Part shown: in pieces, positions 2,563 to 61,304 of the stretch | Position numbering within the stretch: the stretch's first letter is position 1 | Layout: every line of letters starts with the position of its first letter | From: Candidatus Woesearchaeota archaeon | Lineage (GTDB): Archaea > Nanobdellota > Nanobdellia > Woesearchaeales > ARS49 | Direction: 5' to 3' | Assembly: GCA_016203225.1 (NCBI GenBank) | Contig: JACQNC010000014.1 | Coordinates: 25,653-89,652, forward strand | DNA length: 64,000 bases | Translations under genes and position numbers: made by a program | Notes under the pieces: model-generated | Database searches by the model: none | Seen by the model: the letters and a program-made list of their open reading frames with translations, nothing else | Told to the model about the DNA's origin: nothing

Positions 2563-2781
2563 ATGGAATACCGTCTTTCAGCGGTCATCTCAAAGGAAGC
2601 GAAGTTCTTCGTAGCCCGCGGTGTCGAGATCGAGCTCGCGAGCCAGGGCAAGACGGTCGAGGAAGCGTTGAAGAACCTCAAGGAAGCGTTCGAGCTGTGG
2701 ATCAAGCACGCGGATGCCGACGAGCTTGACGTGTTCAAGGACGCGAGTTCTCCCATCGTGACGCAAGTCGTCGCCGCATGA
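2563..2781 (+). CDS. hicB: HicB-family antitoxin (short)
   Basis: ASQGKTVEEALKNLKEAFELW motif; TATA TTTAAA upstream. Confidence 0.85.
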   Translation: MEYRLSAVISKEAKFFVARGVEIELASQGKTVEEALKNLKEAFELWIKHADADELDVFKDASSPIVTQVVAA

Positions 2782-3008
2782 AATTGCCGGTCCTTTCCGG
2801 CAGGGAAGTCGTCAAACTGCTCTGCAACAAATTCGGCTTCAAGGTACTCGACCAGACTGGAAGCCACGTCATCCTCTTCGGCGAACGCGACGGCGTCAAG
2901 CGCAAGCCGGTCGTCCCGCAGCATCCTGAGCTTGCTAAAGGCACCCTGCTGAGCATCCTGAAGCAGGCAGGCTTGACGCGCGACGACTTGGAAAACGCGT
3001 TAAAGTGA
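2778..3008 (+). CDS. hicA: HicA-family mRNA interferase toxin
   Basis: LSGREVVKLL...GF...QTGSHV...VVPQHPELAKGTLLSILKQAGL. Confidence 0.9.
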   Translation: MKLPVLSGREVVKLLCNKFGFKVLDQTGSHVILFGERDGVKRKPVVPQHPELAKGTLLSILKQAGLTRDDLENALK

Positions 3009-3177
3009 GCACGGATTCGAACTCTCCCGTGCGTTACAGGCGCTCCCTTTTGCGACGTTCCTGCAACAACCCCCTAGTGCGGCCCATTTGTGGCCCAAAA
3101 CCGCAAGAACTCAAAAGAAAATGGGATTTTTCTTCCTTCAGGGTTGGCAAAGTTTTTAAACGCATCCTGATTCGGTG

Positions 3178-3735
3178 ATGACCATGAACCCACTCTGGAT
3201 AGTCGCAATCGTCGTAGCGGTTTTCGTCCTCGCCATAATAATAATCTACAACGGCCTTGTCAGGATAAAGAACCAGGTCGAGAACTCATGGGCGCAGATA
3301 GATGTCCAGCTGAAGCGGAGATTCGACCTTATCCCCAACCTCATAGAGACCGTCAAGGGTTATGCGAAACACGAGAAAGGGGTGCTGGAGGAGATAACCA
3401 AAGCGAGGACAGCTTTCATGAGCGCCACGACCGTCCAGCAGAAAGGCAAGGCAGCGAACATGCTTGAAGGCACGTTGAAGACGCTGTTCGCGGTCTCTGA
3501 GAATTATCCCAAGCTCCAGGCTAACGAGAATTTCCTCCAACTCCAGGAGGAGCTCTCAGGCACGGAAAGCAAGATAGCTTACGCGCGCCAGCATTACAAC
3601 GACATGGTCATGGAATTGAACACGAAAGTCCAGACATTCCCGAGCAACGTGTTCGCGCGGATGTTCGGCTTCACCGCGAAAGAGCAGTATCCTGTCCCTG
3701 AAGAAGAACGCAAGAATGTCAAAGTGCAGTTCTAA
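3178..3735 (+). CDS. lemA: LemA family protein
   Basis: N-terminal TM, IDVQLKRRFDLIPNL, ENYPKLQANENF motifs. Confidence 0.95.
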   Translation: MTMNPLWIVAIVVAVFVLAIIIIYNGLVRIKNQVENSWAQIDVQLKRRFDLIPNLIETVKGYAKHEKGVLEEITKARTAFMSATTVQQKGKAANMLEGTLKTLFAVSENYPKLQANENFLQLQEELSGTESKIAYARQHYNDMVMELNTKVQTFPSNVFARMFGFTAKEQYPVPEEERKNVKVQF

Positions 3736-17004: not shown

Positions 17005-17077
17005 CTTTCGGTGGACGATTGCGTTGACGCGTTAAAAAACTTGCTCCTAGCATACGTTGCAGTCCTGCGCTGTGCTC

Positions 17078-17148
17078 CCCAAGCACGATTGACGTGGCTC
17101 TATCGCAACCGATTCGAAAGCAGAAATGTAGCTGCCAACCTGCCTGGG
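17078..17148. repeat. Palindromic element copy B (71 bp)
   Basis: CCCAAGCACGATTGACGT...CCAACCTGCCTGGG. Confidence 0.88.
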
Positions 17149-17182
17149 GAGTAATGCGGGGAACGGGCCGAAGTGCGTATCC

Positions 17183-24200: not shown

Positions 24201-27200
24201 AACGCATTCGGCGGTTTCGGCGCGACGACCGGCAGCACCATGGAGGCATGGATAAAGACAGGTTCTTCCGCATCCATGTCCGCGGTGGGATTCGGTCTGT
24301 CGAGTTCTGCAACGCCCATTCTCGCGATGACGTTCGTCTCGGGGACCGTGCGCTACCAGTACCGCACAGACAACGCGGCAGAACTGGGTGGAGGCATCTA
24401 TGACTCCACGAAGACGGTGAACGACAACCAGTGGCATCATGTCGTATTGCGACGCAGCGGCACCACGTTCGAAATCTATATCGATGGCGTCGTGAACAAG
24501 ACCGGCACAGATGCGTCCTCCTTCAACACGCTCACGACGAACCGCCAGGTGACCGGCGCGCGACGCAGCACGACGGATACCCAATTCTTCAACGGCACCA
24601 TCGATGAGGTCCGGTTGTACAACTTCTCTCTCACGCCACAACAAATCCTGCAAAACTTCCTCGACGGCAACCAGAGCAGGGATCACGCGACGATGGTCAG
24701 CACCGAGTTGGCTGTCGGTGACATCTGGCAGACTGCTGTGACCCCGAACGACGGCATCGAGGACGGCGTCGCCGTGCTTAGCAACAACGTCACGATCATC
24801 AACAACCGTCCCACGATCGCCCAAGTGATCCTGAACTCCACGAATCCCGCCTCCAACAGCACCCAGCATAATCTCACAGTGACCGTCATAAATGCCAGCG
24901 ACGTTGAAGGCGATGGCGTCCAGAACATCACGGACTGGCGCAGGCACAATGGCGTTAACTTCACGAGCATCGCGGTCTTGAACTTCCCGTTCGAGACCAA
25001 CGTGAGCGTGACGACCGCGAAGGCCATCCGGGACTATTCGACGTTCGCGAACAACGGCACGCTCGGCGGCGGCGTCAGCACAGGCATCCCGACGTTCACG
25101 AACGGCACGGTCGGCATGGCGTATTCGTTCGACGGCACGGACGACCGCATCAACGTCTCGAACAACGTGGTGTTCAACATGACTCGCTGGACGCTCGAGG
25201 CATGGATCAAGCCGACCGCCATCGGCGACACGCCCATCATCGTCAGGACCGCGAACGCGGCAGGCACGCAACAGCTCATCGACATCCCGAGCGGAGTCAT
25301 CAAGGGCTACACGCTCCGCATCAACACACCCGAGAACAACGGGTTCTGCGTCGTCGGCGACGGCAGCACGGCCTTTTCCGCGTCCTCCGCGGCCAACACC
25401 GTGCTCACGGGAATCTGGACGCACCTCGCGTGCGCGTACAACGGATCGTACATCACGCTCTACATCAATGGCACCGCCGTGGCGACCACTTCGGTCGGCA
25501 CGATATCCTACACCCACACCGGCGATCTCCAGCTCGGGCACGGATTCACCTCGACCCCTGCGGAGGTGCTCTACAGCGGCCTCATCGACGAGGCGTTCGT
25601 GTACAACAGGACACTCGGTGCGGCAGAACTAGTCTCGCACTACCAGCTCGGCAAGGCCGGCCGTAGGTACAGCACGATGCTGAGCTCGGAGCTCCAGGCA
25701 GGGGACGTCTGGCAGGTCGCGGTGACGCCGAACGACAACAAGCCGAACACAGACGGAGAGACTGTGCTGAGCAACAACGTCACGATCCAGGCGAACTCCG
25801 CGCCAATAATCCAGCAGGTAATCCTGAACAGCACCAACCCTGCCACGAACAGCACGAACCACAACCTGACTGTCTCGGTCATCGGCGCTTCGGACATCGA
25901 TGGCGAACAGGTGCAGAACGTGACCGACTGGCGACGATACAACGGGACAGGGTTCACGAGCATGGCCATGCTCAACATGCCGTTCGACATCAACGGTTCA
26001 AGCAATGTGCGCGACTACAGTACGTATCAGAACAACGGAACGCTCGGAGCAGGCGCGGCCAGCCCGACCTGGAACACCTCCGGCAAAATAGGCGGCGCGT
26101 ATCAATTCGATGGCGGAGACTACATAAGCCGCAACACGGTGACGCTGCCGACAGGCTCAGTGGCATCAGCAGAAGCCTGGATTTATCCAACAGCGTATGC
26201 CGATGCGACATACAACGGCATCGTTTCGTGGGGAAGCAGAACAAGCGCGGATTCCTTCCTCTTAAGCATCCAGAGCACAGGTCGTCCGAGTTTCGCGACC
26301 TGGGCAAATGACTTTGTGCCCACGTGGGGACCTGTCGCGACACTCAACGCCTGGAACCACATCGCGGCGGTGCTGAACGGCACTTACGTTGTGCTATACA
26401 TGAACGGCCAACCGATCAAGGGCACGATCGACGCGACGCCGAACATGGTGTCGACGAACCTCGGCATCGGAATCACAGACTATCCCGGCAGGTACTTCAC
26501 AGGGCTCATAGATCAGATGCGAGTCTACAACCGCAGCCTCAGTGAAGATGAAGTGCTCCAGAGCATGCGCGACGGCAACACGAGCAAAAACCTGATGGCG
26601 TTGGTGGCTCAGGAACTGCAGCCGAATGACATCTGGCTGGTCGCAGCCACTCCGAACGATCGAACAATAGACGGCACGACAGTATTGAGCGGCAACGTCA
26701 CTGTCGTGAACTCGACTCCAGCCATAACCGGCCTTGTCCTCAACATGACGGATCCAGCGACGAACGACACCAACCAGAACCTCACGATGTACGTGACCAG
26801 CGCGTTCGATATCGACAACGATTCTTTCCAGAACATCACCGACTGGCGCAGGAACGGCACGAGCATCGCCGTGCTGAACGTGCCGTTCGAGACCAACAGC
26901 TCCACCACTGTGCGCGACTATAGCACGTTCGGCAACAACGGGACGACTTACGGCACGATGCGCGCGCAATACAGCGTCACGGCATCAGGGAACTCATACC
27001 TGTACGAGGATCTCACGAGCGTGACCGATTACGTGATCGCTTCCGGCGACGTGCTCGAGTACGATGTGTATTGGAACAGTGCCGAGGACTACGTCGCATT
27101 CGACTATACGACATCGGATGCCAGTGCGCTCCGTGCTGCGGGCGCGACCGACCAGAATGGACTTGATGCGCATCCAACGACAGACATAAGCGGATATGCG

Positions 27201-33314: not shown

Positions 33315-34810
33315 AGAAAACAACCGATAGCAGGATAGCGCAGGATCGCAATAGTCCGCAGACTCCTCCGCGTTCCCGGGCCGTCTCCGCTTCGCCCGCT
33401 CCCCGCTCTTCTCCCCCGGCACGATTGACGTCGCTTCATCGCAGTCGATTCGGAAGCAATGAAGCCACTACCAACCTGCTTGGGGATGTTCACGCGTGGG
33501 ACGGCAGGCAGGCGTTCTGCAAGTTCATGCTCTGCTTCAGCCTAATCATCCTGCTCAGCCTTTCCGTATCAGCGTTCGGCATCAGGCCAGCACAAAAAAC
33601 AATCGAGTTCGTGCCCGGCGCGGAATACGACGGCCGTTTCACCATCGTGCGCGACTCGGGCGAGCCAGCGAACGTGCGCGTGTACGCCGAAGGCGCGCTC
33701 GCGCCGTACATAACGTTCGACCAGGACACCCTAACGCTCGAGGGACTCGAGGCGGACATACACTATCATGTTAAACTGCCGTCAGATATCGCGCCAGGCG
33801 ACAGCCTCGGCAGGATAATGGTCGAACAACAGCTACCATCAGGCGAGGACGGCATCGGCGCGCGCATAAGGATCACGTTCAAGATCCACGTCACCGCGCC
33901 CTACCCTGAGAAGTTCATCGGCGGCGCGCTCGACGTCACGAGTGCGGGATACGACCTCGCCGTCAAGACCACCATCCAGAACCTCGGAATAACTTCCCTC
34001 GCGGAGGTCCACCCCCTCGTCACCATAACGGACGCGGATGACGCTCAAGTCACGCAAGTCTCGCTACCGAAGAAACCGCTGCCCATCGCGACGACAGAGA
34101 CATTCGAGCGCACAGTCACCCTGCCCGGCATCAAGAACGGGGTCTACCGCGCGACGGCCGCGGTCACGTACGACGGCGCGCTGCTCGAACTAATCAAGGA
34201 ATTCACCATCGGCAACCCCACGGTCACGATCGCGTACAAAGACCAGTACCTCAAGGCAGGCGAGATCAACACGTTCAACTTCGAGGTCGTCAACCAGTGG
34301 AACGCCCCCATCGATAACATCGTCGCGCGGCTCTCCATCCAAGGAAACGAACAGGAACTCGCCGCGTTCAAGACCGAACGCTTCAGCCTCGCGGCCCACG
34401 AACGCAAGAGGGTCACGGCATATCTCGACGCGCGCAAGCTCGCGCCAGGACAGTACCCCGCGATGCTGAGCATCATCCACGACGCGGGAAGCATAGACGA
34501 GCCGTTCCTGATAGAACTCCTCGAGATAGACGAATACGAACAAAAGGTCACGGAAGCGCCAGCCAAGCTCCCGTGGGCGCCATTGGCGGGGCTCATCGCG
34601 CTGCTCATCTTCAACACGGTAATTATAGGGATGATAATCCTGAAGCTCGTCAAGCGCGGAAAGGAAGTGGACGCGTCAGACGCCGTCGCGGCGTTCGCGA
34701 CCAAGGCCAGAAAGCTCGGTTTCGATGACGCTGAGATACGGCAGCGCCTCCAGAAGGCGGGCTGGTCAAGCCAGGTCATAGAGCGAGGCATGCAAAAAAC
34801 AGGAAAATAG
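33311..34810 (+). CDS. Membrane-anchored multi-Ig-fold protein (PapD/DUF916-like N-terminus)
   Basis: Signal peptide then FGIRPAQ..., C-terminal TM and KLGFDDAEIRQRLQKAGW tail; start may be 33311 (coupled) or later. Confidence 0.7.
   Translation: MKKTTDSRIAQDRNSPQTPPRSRAVSASPAPRSSPPARLTSLHRSRFGSNEATTNLLGDVHAWDGRQAFCKFMLCFSLIILLSLSVSAFGIRPAQKTIEFVPGAEYDGRFTIVRDSGEPANVRVYAEGALAPYITFDQDTLTLEGLEADIHYHVKLPSDIAPGDSLGRIMVEQQLPSGEDGIGARIRITFKIHVTAPYPEKFIGGALDVTSAGYDLAVKTTIQNLGITSLAEVHPLVTITDADDAQVTQVSLPKKPLPIATTETFERTVTLPGIKNGVYRATAAVTYDGALLELIKEFTIGNPTVTIAYKDQYLKAGEINTFNFEVVNQWNAPIDNIVARLSIQGNEQELAAFKTERFSLAAHERKRVTAYLDARKLAPGQYPAMLSIIHDAGSIDEPFLIELLEIDEYEQKVTEAPAKLPWAPLAGLIALLIFNTVIIGMIILKLVKRGKEVDASDAVAAFATKARKLGFDDAEIRQRLQKAGWSSQVIERGMQKTGK
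33414..33484. repeat. Palindromic element copy C (71 bp)
   Basis: CCCCGGCACGATTGACGTCGCTTCAT...ATGAAGCCACTACCAACCTGCTTGGG. Confidence 0.9.
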
Positions 34811-35144: not shown

Positions 35145-35816
35145 ATGGCAAAAGATGACATATCGAACAAAAGCCTCGCGACATTGCTAATAGTGGCGAT
35201 CGTCGTGAGCGTTGGAGGGACGTGGCTCGTGCTCAACAAGGCACCAAGCCTGCTCACCATCACAGGCCTCCAGTCGAGCACAGACACCGGAACAGCGCTC
35301 CTGCAGATCAACACGGTCGCATCCCTGCGGTTCGCGGTGGATGTCGTCAACTTCCAGAACGGTTCTGTAAACACGTCTTCGGGCAACACCGTGTGCACTA
35401 TGGATACGACCGGTGTCAGCCTGGCGCGGAGCCAGTGCATCAACTTCACGAACGTCACCGCCGGATTCCAGATAGAGAACGACGGTTCCACGAACCTGAG
35501 CGTCAACCTCTCATCCGACAAGAGCGCAGACACGTTCTTCGGCGGGAGTGCGTCTTTGAACGAGTTCAAGTGGAAGATCAGCCAGAACGAGTCGTCCTCG
35601 TGCTTGAACAGCACGGGTGGTTCGGGCGGCACGACAGTGACTCCGACCGCGTACACTGACGTCGACACCAGCGCTGGAGGCATAACGGTGTGTCCGTTCC
35701 TCAAATTCCTCGACGCGTCGGACAGCATCAAGGTCGACATCAACGTCACCATCCCGTACGACGCGACATCGGGAGTCAAGACGGCGACACTGACCGCGAC
35801 CGGCACAACGGTTTAA
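35145..35816 (+). CDS. Pilin-like/surface subunit, paralog 1
   Basis: DISNKSL-TM-ITG, beta-rich domain with 4 Cys ending GVKTATLTATGTTV; strong RBS. Confidence 0.8.
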   Translation: MAKDDISNKSLATLLIVAIVVSVGGTWLVLNKAPSLLTITGLQSSTDTGTALLQINTVASLRFAVDVVNFQNGSVNTSSGNTVCTMDTTGVSLARSQCINFTNVTAGFQIENDGSTNLSVNLSSDKSADTFFGGSASLNEFKWKISQNESSSCLNSTGGSGGTTVTPTAYTDVDTSAGGITVCPFLKFLDASDSIKVDINVTIPYDATSGVKTATLTATGTTV

Positions 35817-37371: not shown

Positions 37372-38027
37372 GAGAAAACAACCAAGCCCTGTTCTACAGC
37401 ATAATCGCGCTTTTCGGCGTCGTGCTTGTCGCCGAGTACCTCATGCTCGTGCACGTAGGCGTGTTCCCGAGCGTCACCGGACTGCAGGCCTCTGACACGG
37501 GAGTCGCGCTGCTCGAGATCGCATCTACCGCATCCTTGCGGTTCGCGGTGGATGTCGTCAACTTCCAGAACGGTTCTGTAAACACGTCTTCGGGCAACAC
37601 CGTGTGCACTATGGACACGACCGGAGTCAGCCTGTTGAGGAGCCAGTGCATCAACTTCACGAACGTCACCGCCGGATTCCAGATAGAGAACGACGGCTCT
37701 ACCAATCTCACAGTAAACCTCTCATCAGACAAGGACGCAGACGCATTCCTCGGCGGAAGCGCCTCGTTGAACGAGTTCAAGTGGGCGATCTCGCAGAACG
37801 AGACAGGCTCGTGCAAGAACACGACTGGTGGCACGGGCGGCACGACCGTGACTCCGACCGTGTATTCTGACGTCAACGCGACAGCTGGAGGCATCACGGT
37901 GTGTCCGTTCCTGCAGTTCATAGACGCGTCGGACAGCATCAAGGTCGACATCAACGTCACCATCCCGTACGATGCAACATCGGGCGTCAAGACGGCGACA
38001 CTGACCGCGACCGGCACAACGGTATAG
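37368..38027 (+). CDS. Pilin-like/surface subunit, paralog 2
   Basis: Mature domain nearly identical to 35145-35816, different N-terminal TM. Confidence 0.82.
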   Translation: MRENNQALFYSIIALFGVVLVAEYLMLVHVGVFPSVTGLQASDTGVALLEIASTASLRFAVDVVNFQNGSVNTSSGNTVCTMDTTGVSLLRSQCINFTNVTAGFQIENDGSTNLTVNLSSDKDADAFLGGSASLNEFKWAISQNETGSCKNTTGGTGGTTVTPTVYSDVNATAGGITVCPFLQFIDASDSIKVDINVTIPYDATSGVKTATLTATGTTV

Positions 38028-38775: not shown

Positions 38776-38804
38776 AAATGACCCCCAACGTCCCCGCTTT
38801 TCTT

Positions 38805-38875
38805 CCCAAGCGGTTTTGTAGTGGTGTGATAACTACCAAATCAATACCGATAAAGCGACGTCAAACCTGCCTGGG
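38805..38875. repeat. Palindromic element copy D (71 bp)
   Basis: CCCAAGCGGTTTTGTAGTGG...ACGTCAAACCTGCCTGGG. Confidence 0.88.
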
Positions 38876-38906
38876 AACGCAATGTATGCGCTCACCCGCA
38901 GTTCTC

Positions 38907-38977
38907 CCCCGGCAGATTGGTAGTGGAGTCATTGCGATCGCTTCGATGCGGGTGAAGCGACGTCAAACCTGCTTGGG
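38907..38977. repeat. Palindromic element copy E (71 bp)
   Basis: CCCCGGCAGATTGGTAGTGG...ACGTCAAACCTGCTTGGG; 102-bp spacing from copy D. Confidence 0.88.
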
Positions 38978-39067
38978 CTTGCTCGGCAGGGGAAGCTCAT
39001 TAGACAGCTCATCACGCCTGGGAACGGACGTAGTAGAATCCCATCCAAACCTTTTTAAGACCAAACA

Positions 39068-45153: not shown

Positions 45154-45248
45154 CGATACCTTTATAAACAACCCTCTTGATTTTCTTCGTATCGCGATGT
45201 GGGTAGTTGCTTACCTGAAGCGTAGATGATATCAATGGAGGCACGATT

Positions 45249-45800
45249 ATGGGAATCTACAAGTACATCCGGAATTCTTGGCAGTCAGAGACTCCTGAAA
45301 TCAAAGCGTTGTGGAAAGACAGATTGATCAGCTGGCGCCGTGAACCGTCCACGCTCAGGCTCGAACACCCGACGCGACTCGATCGCGCCAGAGCGCTCGG
45401 CTACCGCGCGAAGGACGGAGTAATAATAGTCCGCCAGCGCGTCAACCGCGGCACGCACAGGCGTGAGGACTGGTCGGGCGGCAGGCACTCGAGCAACATG
45501 CAGATCCGCATGAACCTGCAGTTCAACTACCAATCCATCGCAGAACGCCGCGTGAACGACGTCTACCACAACTGCGAAGTCCTCGGCTCGTACTTCGTCG
45601 CCAAGGACGGAAAGCACGCCTGGTACGAGGTCATACTCGTCGACAGGAGCCACCCGCAAGTCCTCGCTGACGAACGCCTCGCGGGCGTCGCGAAACAACG
45701 CGCGAGAGCCTACCGCGGTCTGACGAGCGCGAACAGGAAGACGCGCGGACTCCGCCACAAGGGCAAGGGCACAGAACACGCAAGGGGCAAAAGGTTCTGA
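45249..45800 (+). CDS. rpl15e: 50S ribosomal protein L15e
   Basis: PTRLDRARALGYRAK, YEVILVD, RGLTSA motifs. Confidence 0.97.
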   Translation: MGIYKYIRNSWQSETPEIKALWKDRLISWRREPSTLRLEHPTRLDRARALGYRAKDGVIIVRQRVNRGTHRREDWSGGRHSSNMQIRMNLQFNYQSIAERRVNDVYHNCEVLGSYFVAKDGKHAWYEVILVDRSHPQVLADERLAGVAKQRARAYRGLTSANRKTRGLRHKGKGTEHARGKRF

Positions 45801-45868
45801 TAGTTTCTTTTTTGTCTTTTGTCTCTAGCGTGAGCTTCTCGCACCCTTTGCAGCCCCCGGTTTTTCTA

Positions 45869-45939
45869 CCCCGGCACGATTGACGTCTCATCACGGCTAT
45901 CGATCCAATTGCAATAATGCCACTACAAACCTGCTTGGG
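45869..45939. repeat. Palindromic element copy F (71 bp)
   Basis: CCCCGGCACGATTGACGT...CTACAAACCTGCTTGGG. Confidence 0.92.
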
Positions 45940-46005
45940 CAGTCACTCTGTCGCACTGGACAGTCGTGCGCGAACTATATAAGCAAGCGGCGCTGAACCG
46001 AACAT

Positions 46006-46839
46006 ATGGACAAACGTGCATTGGTCGTGTTCCAGGACAAGAAGATCCGGAGAACATGGTTCAATGAGGAATGGTGGTTTGTCGCGGCGGACATAATCGC
46101 CGCAGTAACCGACTCCAAAGACCCAGCAGGATATCTCAAAGATATGCGTCGCAGGGATGAAAGCTTCTCAGAAGGGTGGGGGAAAATTGCCACCACCCTT
46201 GGAATCGACACTCCCGGCGGCAAACAAGAACTCAATTGCGTGTCAACAAAAGGGGCTTTCCGGCTCCTTCAGTCAATTCCCTCTCCCAAAGCCGAGCCTT
46301 TCAAGCAGTGGCTCGCCCAAGTAGGATATGAGCGTGTGCAGGAGATCGAGAACCCTGAACTCGCCCAGGCGAGGATGAAGGAGCTATATCGCGCCAAGGG
46401 GTATTCCGATGACTGGATAGAGAAAAGGGTCAGAGGCATCTCCATCCGGCAAGAATTGACCGACGAGTGGAAAAAGCGGGGAGTGAAAGAAGAAAAAGAT
46501 TACGCCATCCTCACCAATGAGATAAGCAAAGCGACGTTCGGGAAGACGGTCGATGAGTATAAAGCGTTCAAAGGGCTCAAGAACGCGAACCTGAGGGATC
46601 ATATGCATGATCTTGAACTGATCTTCACCATGCTCGGCGAGCGGGTCACGACAGAGATCACGCGCGCAAAGGATACGAAAGAATTCCGCGAATGCAAAGG
46701 CGCCGCAAATGCGGGCGGTGAAGTGGCAGGCAACGCGAGAAGGGACGCCGAAAAAAGGATAGGAAAGACCATCGTTTCTGCCGAGAACTATCTCGACGAG
46801 CCTGAAAAAGAGAAACGGAAACGGCTTACTAGACAATAA
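46006..46839 (+). CDS. BRO-N family / phage antirepressor-like protein
   Basis: IRRTW...WWF, RLLQSIPSPKAEPFKQWLA, NLRDHM motifs. Confidence 0.9.
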   Translation: MDKRALVVFQDKKIRRTWFNEEWWFVAADIIAAVTDSKDPAGYLKDMRRRDESFSEGWGKIATTLGIDTPGGKQELNCVSTKGAFRLLQSIPSPKAEPFKQWLAQVGYERVQEIENPELAQARMKELYRAKGYSDDWIEKRVRGISIRQELTDEWKKRGVKEEKDYAILTNEISKATFGKTVDEYKAFKGLKNANLRDHMHDLELIFTMLGERVTTEITRAKDTKEFRECKGAANAGGEVAGNARRDAEKRIGKTIVSAENYLDEPEKEKRKRLTRQ

Positions 46840-46946
46840 TTCAAGCAGAGTTCTTGACAATTGATCTGCGAAGACCTGGATGAGTCAGTCCCCATCTCTC
46901 CCCGCACCCGTTGCAGCCCTTGTTCCCGAGTTCCCCGGTTTTTCTA

Positions 46947-47017
46947 CCCCGGCACGATTGACGTCTCATCACGGCTATCGATCCAATTGCAATAATGCCA
47001 CTACAAAACTGCTTGGG
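46947..47017. repeat. Palindromic element copy G (71 bp, 1 mismatch to F)
   Basis: Direct repeat of copy F including 14 bp of left flank. Confidence 0.92.
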
Positions 47018-47130
47018 AAGATCACATTTCAACTCATCACGTGATTCCTGTCCTTTTCCCTTCGTCGGAGGCGACCGAAAAGCATATAAACGACCCGGCA
47101 GCGCGTTTTCCCGAGAAAGGAGGTCAACCT

Positions 47131-47325
47131 ATGCCCAAAGTCAAGGCAGATATCCCTGCATTGCAGGAAGATGAAGACGACGTCTCGAAGGAGGATTACG
47201 AGGACAAGGACGACGTCAAAGCGGTCATCCCGGATGACGACGACACGGACGACGACGATGTCGAGGATGGCGAGGACACAGAGCAGGACGCCGCCGGCGC
47301 AATCGACATCGGCGACGATCTATAA
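47131..47325 (+). CDS. Small highly acidic protein (64 aa)
   Basis: AGGAGG RBS, TATAAA promoter, T-rich tract downstream; D/E-dominated sequence. Confidence 0.7.
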   Translation: MPKVKADIPALQEDEDDVSKEDYEDKDDVKAVIPDDDDTDDDDVEDGEDTEQDAAGAIDIGDDL

Positions 47326-47424
47326 TATCTTTTTCAATATATATTTTCTAGTCATCTAGTAACCACTCTCGAATAGAAAAACTTTATATAGTTCTCGCAT
47401 CGTCCGTGTTGCTGGGGGTAGTGA

Positions 47425-49872
47425 ATGAAAAAGGCTTATTCCGCGAGTGACGTGAGGTCTCCCGAGCTTCTCCGCGCGATGCGCTGGCAGATCAAGGCGT
47501 TGGAACAGGCACGCGACAACGTAATCATAGGAGATAAAGAGCGCGGCGCGGACTACCTCTTCGACCACGAAGGCAGACTTCTCAAACAATTCAACGCCAT
47601 CGAAGACGCGGCATACAAAGCGCAACACCCAGTCAGGCACGCGGTGCGCAAGGGCTGGCGCTACGCCACGCACGAAGCCACGCTCGCAGCGACGATGCTA
47701 TTCGCGCTAACCACGCCTGGAATGGTGCAGCGCGCGTACGCGGACGAGCCTGTGCCGCAGGAAGTCAAGCAAGACCTACAAGAGACGGTGCGCTCGATAC
47801 TCGCGGAAGGCAACGTCCAAAACCGCGACACGAAAGAAGGCAAGGTGTTCGTGACGCTCAATGACGGCCGCGTTCTCGAATACTCCGACACGCCCGGCAA
47901 GTCCACAGACATCCAGATATTGAAGGATGGCAACAAGGTCGGAACGATCTACCTCAGGGACGAACAGAAGACGCTCGAGCACGACGGCAAGACAGTCACG
48001 CTCACCGGGGAAGCCTACCGCGGATGGGAGAACGCCGTCTGCAAGTTCTTCGAAGGCAAAGAACTCTACCCGCAGGAACCCAAGAAGGAAGAACCCAAAC
48101 AGGATACTCCGAAAGAGCCGACGCTCAACGACCTCGCGGGCAAGTACTTCAACGAGGCCAACGTCGCCTCGCGCGGGGTCAGCCCGGCCGACGACAAGAT
48201 CAAGCTCATAATGCTCAAGGACGGAGAACTCGAAGGCCTGCGCCTCGAATACATCGACACGCCCGGCAGCTTCACGCACATCAACGTCATCTCGAGCGAC
48301 GGCAAACGCCTCGGCAACATCTTCCTCTCGGACAAGACGAAGACGGTCGACTTCCTCGACAGATCCTACAAAGGACTGGACGAAACAGAGTACAAAGCCA
48401 TCGAAAGCGTCGTGTACAGATTCTTCGAACAGAAAGAACTCGAAGAACCGAAACCAGAGCCGAAGCCGGATGACAAGCCGAAGGACGAACCGAAACCGGA
48501 AGACAAACCGAAGCCGGACAAGAAAGACGACACGTTCGTGAAGCTCACCGGCTCCAGCCTCTACCTTCCAGGCAGATTGTTCGACAACAACTACGCGCGG
48601 CTCTCAGGAGGCCTGGAAACGAAAGACTCAGGCATCCGCGGCAGGTTCGACGGCACGCTCTCGCTCGGCGACCTCGATCTCGGCTGGGACCTGTTCTACA
48701 CAGGCACCAGCGGCATCGAAGGCGACGCCGACCGCGATACGAGCGACCTTGGCGGCATCCTCTCGCTACGCCACAAGATAATCGACCTCAGACTCAACGC
48801 GGCGATGCTCGACACCGACTACGGGCGCGACTTCGCGAGCACGGCCATGCTCAGCCCGACGCTCCAACAGGACACGTCCGGAAGCGAAGAGACGAGCATC
48901 GAGACGCTGCTCTTCTCGGGCGCGCTGGACTACCGGCTGAACGATTCATTGCTGATCCAGCTGCTCGGGTGGAGCAACCGCACGAAGGACACACACCTGC
49001 TCAGCCAGACCGACCACATCTTCGGCACGGTCCTCGTGCCAGGCTTCGGACCTGTCGCGGTCGACGACACGGTCCTCACTGACGTCAGCACGAAGACGCT
49101 CACGCGCGAGCAAGGCATCGGCATGGGATTCGACGTCGCGCTCAGCAAGTACACCAAGCTCTCGCTCCTGCCGGTCTACACCAGACGCTCGATCAGCACC
49201 ACCGTGAACGGCGACGAGATACTGGACGAGGACTATGACAACCTCCGCCTGCAAGCACGGTTCCAATGGAACTCGCTCGTGCTCACCGCGGGCAGGTTGC
49301 AGCAGTTCAACGACGACCTCGACAGCGAATTCATCGGCGCAGGGCATTACAGCCTCCTCCTCGGCGAACACGTGCTCGGCCAGTTGCACGCAGGCATAGA
49401 CGACAACGGCAAAGGTTTCGGCGGACTGATGTTCAACTTCAACGCCACGCGCAAACTCACGACAGAGGACGTCATGGCAGCGGCGGCATACCGCAACTTC
49501 GCGCTCGACACCGCCATCGACTGGGGACTCACGCCCGACCAGCGCAGGAGCGCGCTATGGGACTCCCGCGACGCGTTCATCCGACGCACCGGCGGACTCA
49601 CAGTGGAGGCATGGCTGCGCGACCGCGACGGCCACAACGTGTACGGCATAGGATTCGGCGTCGACCTCGACCCGCTGATCCCGAGCCTGATACTGCTCGG
49701 CGACTTCGAAGGAGGCCGAGACTACCGGCAGTGGAGCCTCGGAGCGCGCAAGAAGCTATTCACCATCTCTGACATTCCAGTGAGCCTAGGCGTCGGGATC
49801 CAGTCAATCGATGACGGCGACCGTGGATCAAGCCAAGGCATGCTCGAGATCATCATAGGCGGCAAGCAATGA
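47425..49872 (+). CDS. 815-aa exported protein: two repeats, PK/PE linkers, C-terminal beta-barrel-like domain
   Basis: Hydrophobic segment ending AYA-DE, LEYSDTPG / LEYIDTPG repeats, many amphipathic Gly/aromatic strands. Confidence 0.75.
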   Translation: MKKAYSASDVRSPELLRAMRWQIKALEQARDNVIIGDKERGADYLFDHEGRLLKQFNAIEDAAYKAQHPVRHAVRKGWRYATHEATLAATMLFALTTPGMVQRAYADEPVPQEVKQDLQETVRSILAEGNVQNRDTKEGKVFVTLNDGRVLEYSDTPGKSTDIQILKDGNKVGTIYLRDEQKTLEHDGKTVTLTGEAYRGWENAVCKFFEGKELYPQEPKKEEPKQDTPKEPTLNDLAGKYFNEANVASRGVSPADDKIKLIMLKDGELEGLRLEYIDTPGSFTHINVISSDGKRLGNIFLSDKTKTVDFLDRSYKGLDETEYKAIESVVYRFFEQKELEEPKPEPKPDDKPKDEPKPEDKPKPDKKDDTFVKLTGSSLYLPGRLFDNNYARLSGGLETKDSGIRGRFDGTLSLGDLDLGWDLFYTGTSGIEGDADRDTSDLGGILSLRHKIIDLRLNAAMLDTDYGRDFASTAMLSPTLQQDTSGSEETSIETLLFSGALDYRLNDSLLIQLLGWSNRTKDTHLLSQTDHIFGTVLVPGFGPVAVDDTVLTDVSTKTLTREQGIGMGFDVALSKYTKLSLLPVYTRRSISTTVNGDEILDEDYDNLRLQARFQWNSLVLTAGRLQQFNDDLDSEFIGAGHYSLLLGEHVLGQLHAGIDDNGKGFGGLMFNFNATRKLTTEDVMAAAAYRNFALDTAIDWGLTPDQRRSALWDSRDAFIRRTGGLTVEAWLRDRDGHNVYGIGFGVDLDPLIPSLILLGDFEGGRDYRQWSLGARKKLFTISDIPVSLGVGIQSIDDGDRGSSQGMLEIIIGGKQ

Positions 49873-61034: not shown

Positions 61035-61304
61035 GTCCTCACACTCCTCACTTCTTGACAGATGGCAAGCACGGATAGTCCTTGCCTTCGAACGTGAATG
61101 CCGCAGCGCAACACGCATGTCACGCGCGAAATTCCCATCTTACCTCACAGTTGTGCGGAACGCAGGTTGTTTTATAAACGTAGTATGTTTTGAACATCTA
61201 TGTTCAAGGATACATTCACATTCAGTGGACTTCCTGGCGCAGCATTTTTATAGGGACAGATGTGACTTTCAGGTGCAGATAAACATTCATTAATTCCTTT
61301 CAAT

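Follow-up and report, generated by a model that had tools for sequence, protein, structure and literature searches.

The question addressed here is how a single accessory gene came to lie between two nearly identical copies of a repeat of a palindromic family in the chromosome of a Candidatus Woesearchaeota archaeon. The gene codes for a 277-aa Bro-N/DinD-like protein (it is called BRO below) and is located just downstream of rpl15e, in a stretch of DNA of 64,000 nt, referred to as the window, that corresponds to positions 25653–89652 of contig C7 of the genome under study (G000; 1.0 Mb, 15 contigs, 57% GC). Coordinates are those of the window unless a contig is named, and all the features of the locus are on the + strand. 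An initial annotation, made from the sequence alone, had interpreted the arrangement as a gene-plus-palindrome unit integrated at, or duplicating, a resident palindrome; it likened this unit to an integron cassette and suggested that the palindromes act as sites of gene capture and excision. The reading towards which we lean is a one-step insertion of the BRO cassette that duplicated a resident palindromic element.

The two repeats that flank BRO (copy 1, 45855–45942; copy 2, 46933–47020) are direct repeats spaced 1078 nt apart, with 86 of their 88 bases in common. The two mismatches are a C at 45930 facing an A at 47008, and a C at 45940 facing an A at 47018; the central 75 nt (45855–45929) are fully identical between the copies. 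The 85-bp, single-mismatch repeat noticed initially is thus contained in this 88-nt span. The further shared module that had been seen upstream of each copy is real as well: the outer left module of copy 1 (45835–45856, 22 nt) is 86% identical to 46898–46919, while that of copy 2 (46898–46932) includes 15 extra nt that copy 1 lacks. Outer modules of this type also adjoin other members of the palindrome family. Describing the repeats as palindromes suits the family, whose consensus is a near-perfect palindrome of ∼72 nt with nested inverted modules outside it, but not these two copies: an inverted-repeat scan with a 6-nt seed detected none in either of them, and just 23 of 38 arm positions are complementary. 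A structured RNA at the repeats was considered and rejected, since the fold z-scores of the repeat region on its two strands (−0.47 and −0.21, relative to shuffled sequences) indicated no excess of fold stability. An Rfam search over 45200–47500 returned sub-threshold chance matches only.

The DNA between the repeats (45943–46932) contains one convincing open reading frame (ORF), in which Bro-N is the only domain, and a scan of ORFs and Pfam families found no integrase, transposase, recombinase or other mobile element in it. It starts a few bases 5′ of a CACTGGACA element (45954–45962), which is followed by a TATATAA box (45976–45982) placed 24 nt before the ATG of BRO (46006–46839); judged from its sequence, the 45954–45982 segment is the putative BRO promoter. 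The DNA between the repeats ends 58 nt past the BRO stop codon, and the 3′ tail of the insert (46840–46932) showed no similarity to any other BRO locus compared. Pfam assigned the protein to Bro-N (PF02498; E 1.6e-12, 48 bits against a cut-off of 25.6), and it matched over its full length both phrog_15286 (E 1.9e-83) and the PADLOC candidate defence family PDC-S13 (E 1.7e-107, residues 1–272). ORF analysis, Pfam and direct inspection agree with the earlier description of a single BRO-N gene with its own TATA box just after rpl15e. The A-richness noted initially was also borne out: among 697 genes of at least 450 nt, BRO is at the 4.6th percentile for GC (51.9%), the 5th for GC3 (61%) and the 98.6th for A (31%), values that give it a foreign-looking composition. 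The gene is present in a single copy in G000.

The comparison of the rpl15e locus in related genomes, which had been proposed as a check, bears directly on whether BRO was inserted. The upstream neighbour, rpl15e (45249–45800; Pfam Ribosomal_L15e, E 3.6e-56), has orthologues in five congeners, and in all five (G001, G002, G003, G005 and G006) it is followed directly, after ∼30–210 nt, by the orthologue of the downstream neighbour of BRO, a gene for a small acidic protein (47131–47325) that matched no Pfam family; BRO is absent from all five sites. The locus was not found in G004, an assembly that is 74% complete. The spacer of G003, a sister species and, of 26 genomes searched, the only other one rich in the family, contains one palindrome of the family, whose alignment to the window copies is weak; where copies 1 and 2 mismatch, it has the base of copy 2 in both cases, and the promoter that follows it aligns with the promoter that follows copy 2. 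No such palindrome was found in the corresponding spacers of G001, G002, G005 and G006. The five sites lacking BRO and the single palindrome of G003 show that BRO is an insertion in the G000 lineage, and the mismatch states suggest that copy 2 is probably the resident element. Together with the near-identity of the pair, they support a recent insertion beside a resident palindrome, and the sequences likewise support the view that the flanking copies are a recent duplicate. This much of the initial proposal of a gene-plus-palindrome unit at a resident palindrome stands; its integron-like machinery does not. Taken alone, a single event of this sort is an ordinary kind of thing.

What sets the locus apart is the likeness of the two repeats when viewed against the rest of their family. 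Iterated nhmmer searches gave 182 strand matches, which reduce to 94 loci in G000, almost all of them matched on both strands; copy 1 scored 66.6 bits. The BRO-flanking pair (98.8% identity) was the most similar of 3825 family pairs, the next two being 95.1% and 87.7% identical, with a median of 66.7% and a 99th percentile of 81%. The earlier statement that other family members are far more diverged therefore holds. The copies closest to the BRO-flanking variant were ∼80–87% identical by BLAST, over parts of their length, and the variant is otherwise unique in G000. A chance insertion of BRO between two older tandem palindromes was considered and rejected, as tandem pairs in G000 are only 68–77% alike. 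One such tandem pair is found in the window at 38792–38880 and 38897–38979 (105 nt start to start, 72% alike), and there are several in the genome. A self-comparison of G000 identified ten pairs of direct repeats that lie within 5 kb of each other and enclose genes, in three cases one gene; the BRO pair is the only one of the ten that joins near-identity with membership in the palindrome family, and the only near-identical direct repeat that brackets a single gene in this 1-Mb genome.

In a one-step insertion, a cassette of ∼0.95 kb, consisting of the CACTGGACA/TATA promoter and the PDC-S13 gene with its foreign composition, would have entered the spacer between rpl15e and the acidic-protein gene in one event. 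Its landing site would have been a resident MITE-like (miniature inverted-repeat transposable element) palindromic element, and the insertion would have duplicated this element (∼90–130 bp), leaving one copy on each side. The chemistry can be guessed at: opposite strands might be broken at the two ends of a hairpin-prone element, after which both overhangs would be filled in and joined to the incoming DNA. Insertion and duplication would then be a single event. The 75-bp identical cores could later recombine and delete the gene as a 1078-bp circle, although this was not observed. The reading builds on what the sequences show: an insertion, a duplication, an insert without a mobility gene, and locally derived repeats that recur around relatives of the gene.

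Among 20 BRO loci from related genomes, short direct repeats immediately adjoin BRO on both sides in L014 (36 nt), L017 (25 nt), L018 (42 and 31 nt) and L029 (45 nt), each of a different sequence. The recurrence of such repeats was then assessed by counting repeats of at least 20 nt present within 300 nt of both ends of a gene, at loci with full flanks and non-identical BRO sequences. For related genomes and viral contigs together, 11 of 77 BRO loci had flanking repeats, as did 6 of 177 other long ORFs at the same loci; the corresponding figures for metagenome contigs were 3 of 63 and 1 of 114. Combined, this amounts to 14/140 BRO loci against 7/291 neighbouring ORFs, with the qualification that the loci are not independent. 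Several of the control matches came from phage contigs in which a repeated intergenic element parts successive genes (L040 and L081). The BRO-flanking repeats consisted of local sequence, be it terminator-like hairpins, a promoter with a start codon, or the 3′ end of the upstream gene. Unrelated local repeats at BRO relatives suggest that the flanking stems from the way in which the insertion proceeds and not from the palindrome.

Insertion with long target duplication is said to have been described by Nobusato et al. in 2000. In a later study, restriction-modification genes were found inserted with local repeats of more than 30 bp; these were variable copies of the target, often extending over start or stop codons, the inserts had no mobility gene and a deviant GC content, and the screen, which used copy number to remove multi-copy repeats, kept no case from an archaeon (Furuta, Abe and Kobayashi 2010; PMC2853133). 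The BRO locus resembles these insertions in having a defence-type gene, no mobility gene, local direct repeats longer than 30 bp, an empty site and a deviant GC content. It differs in its cargo, which is a single PDC-S13 gene without a predicted nuclease instead of a restriction-modification system, in its host, a DPANN archaeon, and in that the duplicated target belongs to a 94-copy palindromic family. A search of the literature from 2011 onwards, judged by title, found no long target duplication in an archaeon. On the preferred reading, the mode of insertion is a known, integrase-free one, its mechanism still poorly understood, and not that of an integron.

Several observations weigh against a one-step insertion. 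The flanking repeat belongs to a multi-copy, mobile-looking family of 94 loci, and copying by the element itself could explain the duplication, since the ends of the BRO pair's core are the same as those of the 95% pair, whose members are dispersed. The two copies differ only at their edges (none in the central 75 nt, compared with five substitutions and the 15-nt indel outside it), which simple neutral decay after a duplication does not predict. A palindrome is present in only one of the five empty sites. The family is much more uniform in G003 (median about 85%), and palindromes that are neighbours there resemble each other somewhat more than distant ones do (median 88% versus 85%; 10 versus 220 pairs, one-sided p 0.03) and flank ordinary-looking genes. 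Two sequencing runs (X3 and X4, see below) carry 45835–46050 and 45838–46027 without the rpl15e flank, which hints that copy 1 can travel with the gene. Finally, 126 of the 140 BRO loci have no flanking repeat. The G003 palindrome pairs that flank such genes include ones 91% and 97% alike (L261, G003:C36:5900–7300, and L264, G003:C19:5800–14400); a 138-aa ORF flanked by alike palindromes in this genome was read by eye as SepF-like.

The mobile-looking repeat, the differences confined to the edges and the likeness of G003 neighbours keep a later local copy as a rival: BRO would have been inserted next to a resident palindrome without duplicating it, and afterwards either the MITE-like palindrome would have made a local copy into the new spacer between rpl15e and BRO, or gene conversion would have homogenised two older copies. 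The family does have the traits expected of MITE- or REP-like repeats, being short, non-coding, multi-copy and intergenic, with inverted terminal arms. In G000, 60 of the 94 loci are in spacers between tandem genes, 14 in divergent and 12 in convergent spacers, 6 in ORFs (on rough gene calls) and 2 at contig ends; at least 86 are intergenic or at a contig edge. These numbers are proportional to the spacers available (698 tandem, 162 divergent and 164 convergent) and reveal no orientation bias. A sequence-only model built from 27 copies detected the family in 3 of 26 related genomes (152 strand matches in G000, 96 in G003 and 2 in G006); three further congeners and genomes of 19 other genera were searched and gave no match. 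The members found in G000 and G003 have terminal arms in common and different interiors, an arrangement that resembles that of MITE subfamilies. The two members of the other recent pair, each on its own contig, have nothing but the ∼85-nt element in common; its ends are sharp and are also the bounds of the high-identity core at BRO. G000 further contains an IS200/IS605-type TnpA on contig C2.

Against such a second event stands the age of the G000 family, as reflected in its median identity of 67%, and the fact that its neighbouring copies are not more alike than distant ones (median 0.66 for 60 pairs at most 6 kb apart versus 0.67 for 3898 distant pairs, p 0.54). Also, the sole near-identical pair brackets exactly the foreign gene, a coincidence of about 1 in 1000 by a rough reckoning that is no formal test; no target duplication is evident around either copy, and the shared 22-nt module lies outside the core unit. 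Two separate events were on balance judged unlikely. The resemblance to known repeats (Correia, ERIC and REP/RAYT sequences) extends to arms kept between species, and ends at the absence of any clear target-site duplication at the two recent family pairs and of an identified cognate transposase; the BRO-flanking copies are, moreover, weak palindromes. A RAYT-type partner was rejected as a candidate: the only transposase found in the genome, this Y1-type TnpA, lies beside a TnpB-like ORF on a 7-kb contig free of palindromes (G000:C2:480–2087). The arms of the family occur in two sequence states, a CAGGTTTGTAG-type and a CACGATTGACG-type (examples are the copies at 17069–17160, 33403–33489 and 45857–45944). 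In none of the 27 aligned copies do both arms show the second state; many copies therefore have an orientation and are imperfect versions of a palindrome.

The assembly of the locus was examined with four public sequencing runs (X1–X4), all available as k=31 contigs, with noisy depths for X1 and X2. They bear on two further explanations, the first being an assembly artefact, in which a chromosome with one palindrome and a separate 1078-bp circle, or the DNA of another strain, would have been mis-threaded through the 75-bp repeat. The repeat does interrupt the contigs of X1 and X2, and among the pieces listed there is none that covers the whole stretch and none with a skip of 1078 nt. However, the depth over BRO (15.7–17.1 in X1, 14.3–19.8 in X2) is near that of its two flanks (20.5 and 14.8 in X1, 23 and 21.1 in X2), and the 75-nt core, a separate unitig in both runs, has about double that depth (31.7 in X1, 33.4 in X2), which fits two copies. 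Further, a repeat of 75 nt would be shorter than the usual read. X3 and X4, which lack the rest of the locus, provide error-free unitigs of 216 nt (45835–46050) and 190 nt (45838–46027). These begin at most 3 nt from the left edge of the repeat and run through the left module, copy 1 and the BRO promoter into the first codons of the gene. As they join the left module of copy 1 to the BRO promoter by way of the core, they speak against a mis-threaded assembly, which we regard as very improbable.

The same unitigs can be quoted in favour of the second explanation, a circle carrying BRO and a palindrome of its own that recombined with the resident one and could be released again, because they join copy 1 to the 5′ end of BRO without a chromosomal flank and are unbranched through the core. 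Related work on the PeSL elements of T4-type phages was reportedly published by Comeau et al. in 2014. Homologous exchange between PeSLs, inserting or releasing a gene-plus-repeat circle, has been shown for ORFan cassettes of T4-type phages, in which PeSLs contain both a promoter and a terminator and are concentrated at variable genes (Arbiol et al. 2010; PMC2839356). A crossover inside the identical core would also leave copies that differ only at their edges, as seen here, and some phage contigs hold BRO in arrays with repeated intergenic elements. In two of these, the viral contigs L040 (980–3873) and L081 (782–3956), BRO is the last of several genes parted by an intergenic repeat of ∼50–77 nt, which in L040 includes a terminator-like hairpin; they are arrays of the PeSL kind. 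The locus under study is like a PeSL cassette in that a single gene lies between near-identical intergenic repeats and an integrase-free exchange is possible. It is unlike one in that a PeSL includes promoter and terminator, whereas the promoter of BRO is external to the repeat; there is also just one such pair, and the palindromes are not enriched at variable genes. For a circle, the incoming copy would need to have been ∼95–99% like the resident one, while the other copies in the genome reach at most 88%. The family occurs in few related genomes and at none of the other BRO loci examined (see below), and the unitigs of both X3 and X4 include the copy-1 left module, which under a circle model is expected to be chromosomal. 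Integration of such a circle thus seems distinctly unlikely, and the one-step insertion is retained as the preferred reading.

Whether the palindromes mark sites of gene capture in general was analysed by comparing G000 with G002, a near-complete congener free of palindromes, on the basis of rough gene calls that yielded 603 reciprocal best hits. Palindromes occupied 23 of 298 conserved adjacencies and 59 of 726 other spacers (odds ratio 1.06, p 0.90). They were found at 40 of 415 boundaries between orthologues and non-orthologues, in 11 of 219 spacers between non-orthologues, at 5 of 61 near-adjacencies and at 3 of 31 breakpoints; they are therefore no markers of variable genes. At E ≤ 1, no match to the palindrome family was present in 180 other BRO loci (0.93 Mb). 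Nor was any further gene found in G000 between near-identical palindromes when the search for such genes, suggested initially, was made. A 40-mer of the palindrome core was not found in metagenome contigs, nor one of the palindrome/promoter junction in genome and viral contigs, collections that may omit the window's own records. The idea that the palindromes are general capture or excision sites is not supported.

The core sites of attC recombination sites, R″ and R′, have the forms RYYYAAC and GTTRRRY. Ends of this type were not seen in the family alignments when these were inspected by eye, which is a weak test. The only tyrosine recombinase match in G000 (PF00589 at C7:20267–20785) lies ∼50 kb upstream of BRO; features specific to IntI were not examined. 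It is a 437-aa ORF (G000:C7:19820–21133) located ∼4.5 kb before the start of the window and followed by small ORFs, with which it may form an integrated element. The palindromes, moreover, are dispersed at about one per 10 kb over all spacer types and form no co-oriented arrays, the cargo has its own promoter, and there is no second cassette. In favour of an integron-like or other site-specific cassette system with the palindromes as attC-like sites, it can be said that imperfect palindromes of attC-like length flank a single gene. Integron cassettes and integrase-less attC clusters have also been reported in Archaea, including Nanoarchaeota (Ghaly et al. 2022; PMC9668308). The likeness between those systems and the BRO locus consists of a gene bounded by imperfect palindromes of ∼60–140 bp; the difference lies in the dispersed palindromes, the promoter of the cargo, and the IntI and attC core motifs, none of which were found here. 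The integron-like cassette proposed initially is accordingly scarcely credible.

Relatives of BRO are very numerous. DNA searches found copies of BRO that are patchy in relatives and located at other loci. Among viral contigs, 171 of 176 candidate stretches encode a BRO relative, with 40–57% identity among the best 80, and among metagenome contigs 591 of 601 do (an estimated 5700 in the whole collection), the best being 75% identical. Since the closest relatives found are 75–76% identical, no pair with the same cassette and different flanks is available. In the congener G001, the BRO homologue (L017 on G001:C20, match 2718–3517) is split over two reading frames and is therefore probably a pseudogene; its locus has no synteny with G000, and thus no empty site was identified for it.

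The protein itself contains no recombinase or nuclease domain that could be found, and a sequence search of the Protein Data Bank (PDB) with it gave no match. It scored 22.2 bits, over its C-terminal part only, in the DinD equivalog NF008573, below the cut-off of 242. AlphaFold2, supplied with an alignment of 38 rows from which two rows with internal stops had been dropped, produced a model with a mean pLDDT of 84. All six Foldseek matches to the PDB at E ≤ 0.001 were to DdrC of Deinococcus radiodurans (E 4.6e-6 to 4.5e-5, TM 0.3–0.5). The predicted fold is therefore that of an all-helical, DdrC-like DNA binder. DdrC itself has reportedly been described as a protein that binds DNA breaks. BRO shares with DinD of Escherichia coli, DdrC and PDC-S13 an N-terminal Bro-N domain and a helical C-terminal part, and with PDC-S13 a full-length match, but it falls short of the DinD threshold and its TM values to DdrC are low. 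Literature searches on PDC-S13, and on Bro-N with direct repeats, found nothing relevant. One could imagine that Bro-N/DinD-like (PDC-S13) genes are break-seeking cassettes, whose DdrC-like product, as a binder of nicked or broken DNA, helps its own gene to join staggered breaks at hairpin-prone sites, for instance terminators and palindromic repeats; the local repeats seen at 14 of 140 loci, in which hairpins are frequent, may be compatible with this. We consider it very doubtful.

The CACTGGACA element is not confined to BRO. It is found 8–22 nt 5′ of a TATA box before other G000 genes, coding for a Hef helicase-nuclease, a fused primase, an RNase H-fold exonuclease, a LAGLIDADG-type ORF and a 112-aa ORF (the element lies at C5:82224, C5:85774, C13:56875, C13:123887 and C14:12555), and, by eye, before the MCM gene at C6:9517. 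A one-base variant (window ∼61223–61230) precedes the gene of an Lhr helicase, which extends from 61305 to the end of the window. In G002 the element is present upstream of the orthologues of Hef, MCM and Lhr, and a primase-type promoter there is near-identical too. Among BRO homologues in relatives it was seen by eye at most of 12 loci, and it was found at 17 of 75 loci in a further set. The distribution of CACTGGACA makes it a candidate element of a replication/repair regulon of this archaeal genus, and its presence before both BRO and those genes suggests that the cassette brings with it a promoter of the host replication/repair set.

Elsewhere in the window, 35318–35812 and 37529–38023 form a 495-bp direct duplication (88% identity) that covers two paralogous genes with the same best match in G002.

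Little is understood of the ways in which single accessory genes are acquired by small genomes that are poor in integrases, as in DPANN archaea. The BRO locus is a clean case with an empty site in relatives, in which a candidate defence gene arrived with its promoter only and left a duplicated local element as its footprint. On the preferred reading, it takes insertion with long target duplication outside the realm of restriction-modification systems and, as far as the literature searched goes, into Archaea. With its 75-bp identical cores, the locus has the potential to lose the gene by excision. Dispersed palindromes would shape where new genes land if the points of entry are breaks at hairpin-prone repeats. 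Should the break-seeking reading of Bro-N/DinD-like genes be true, long target duplications in phages and archaea would follow from it, as would a form of integrase-free mobility brought about by a DNA-repair-type protein.

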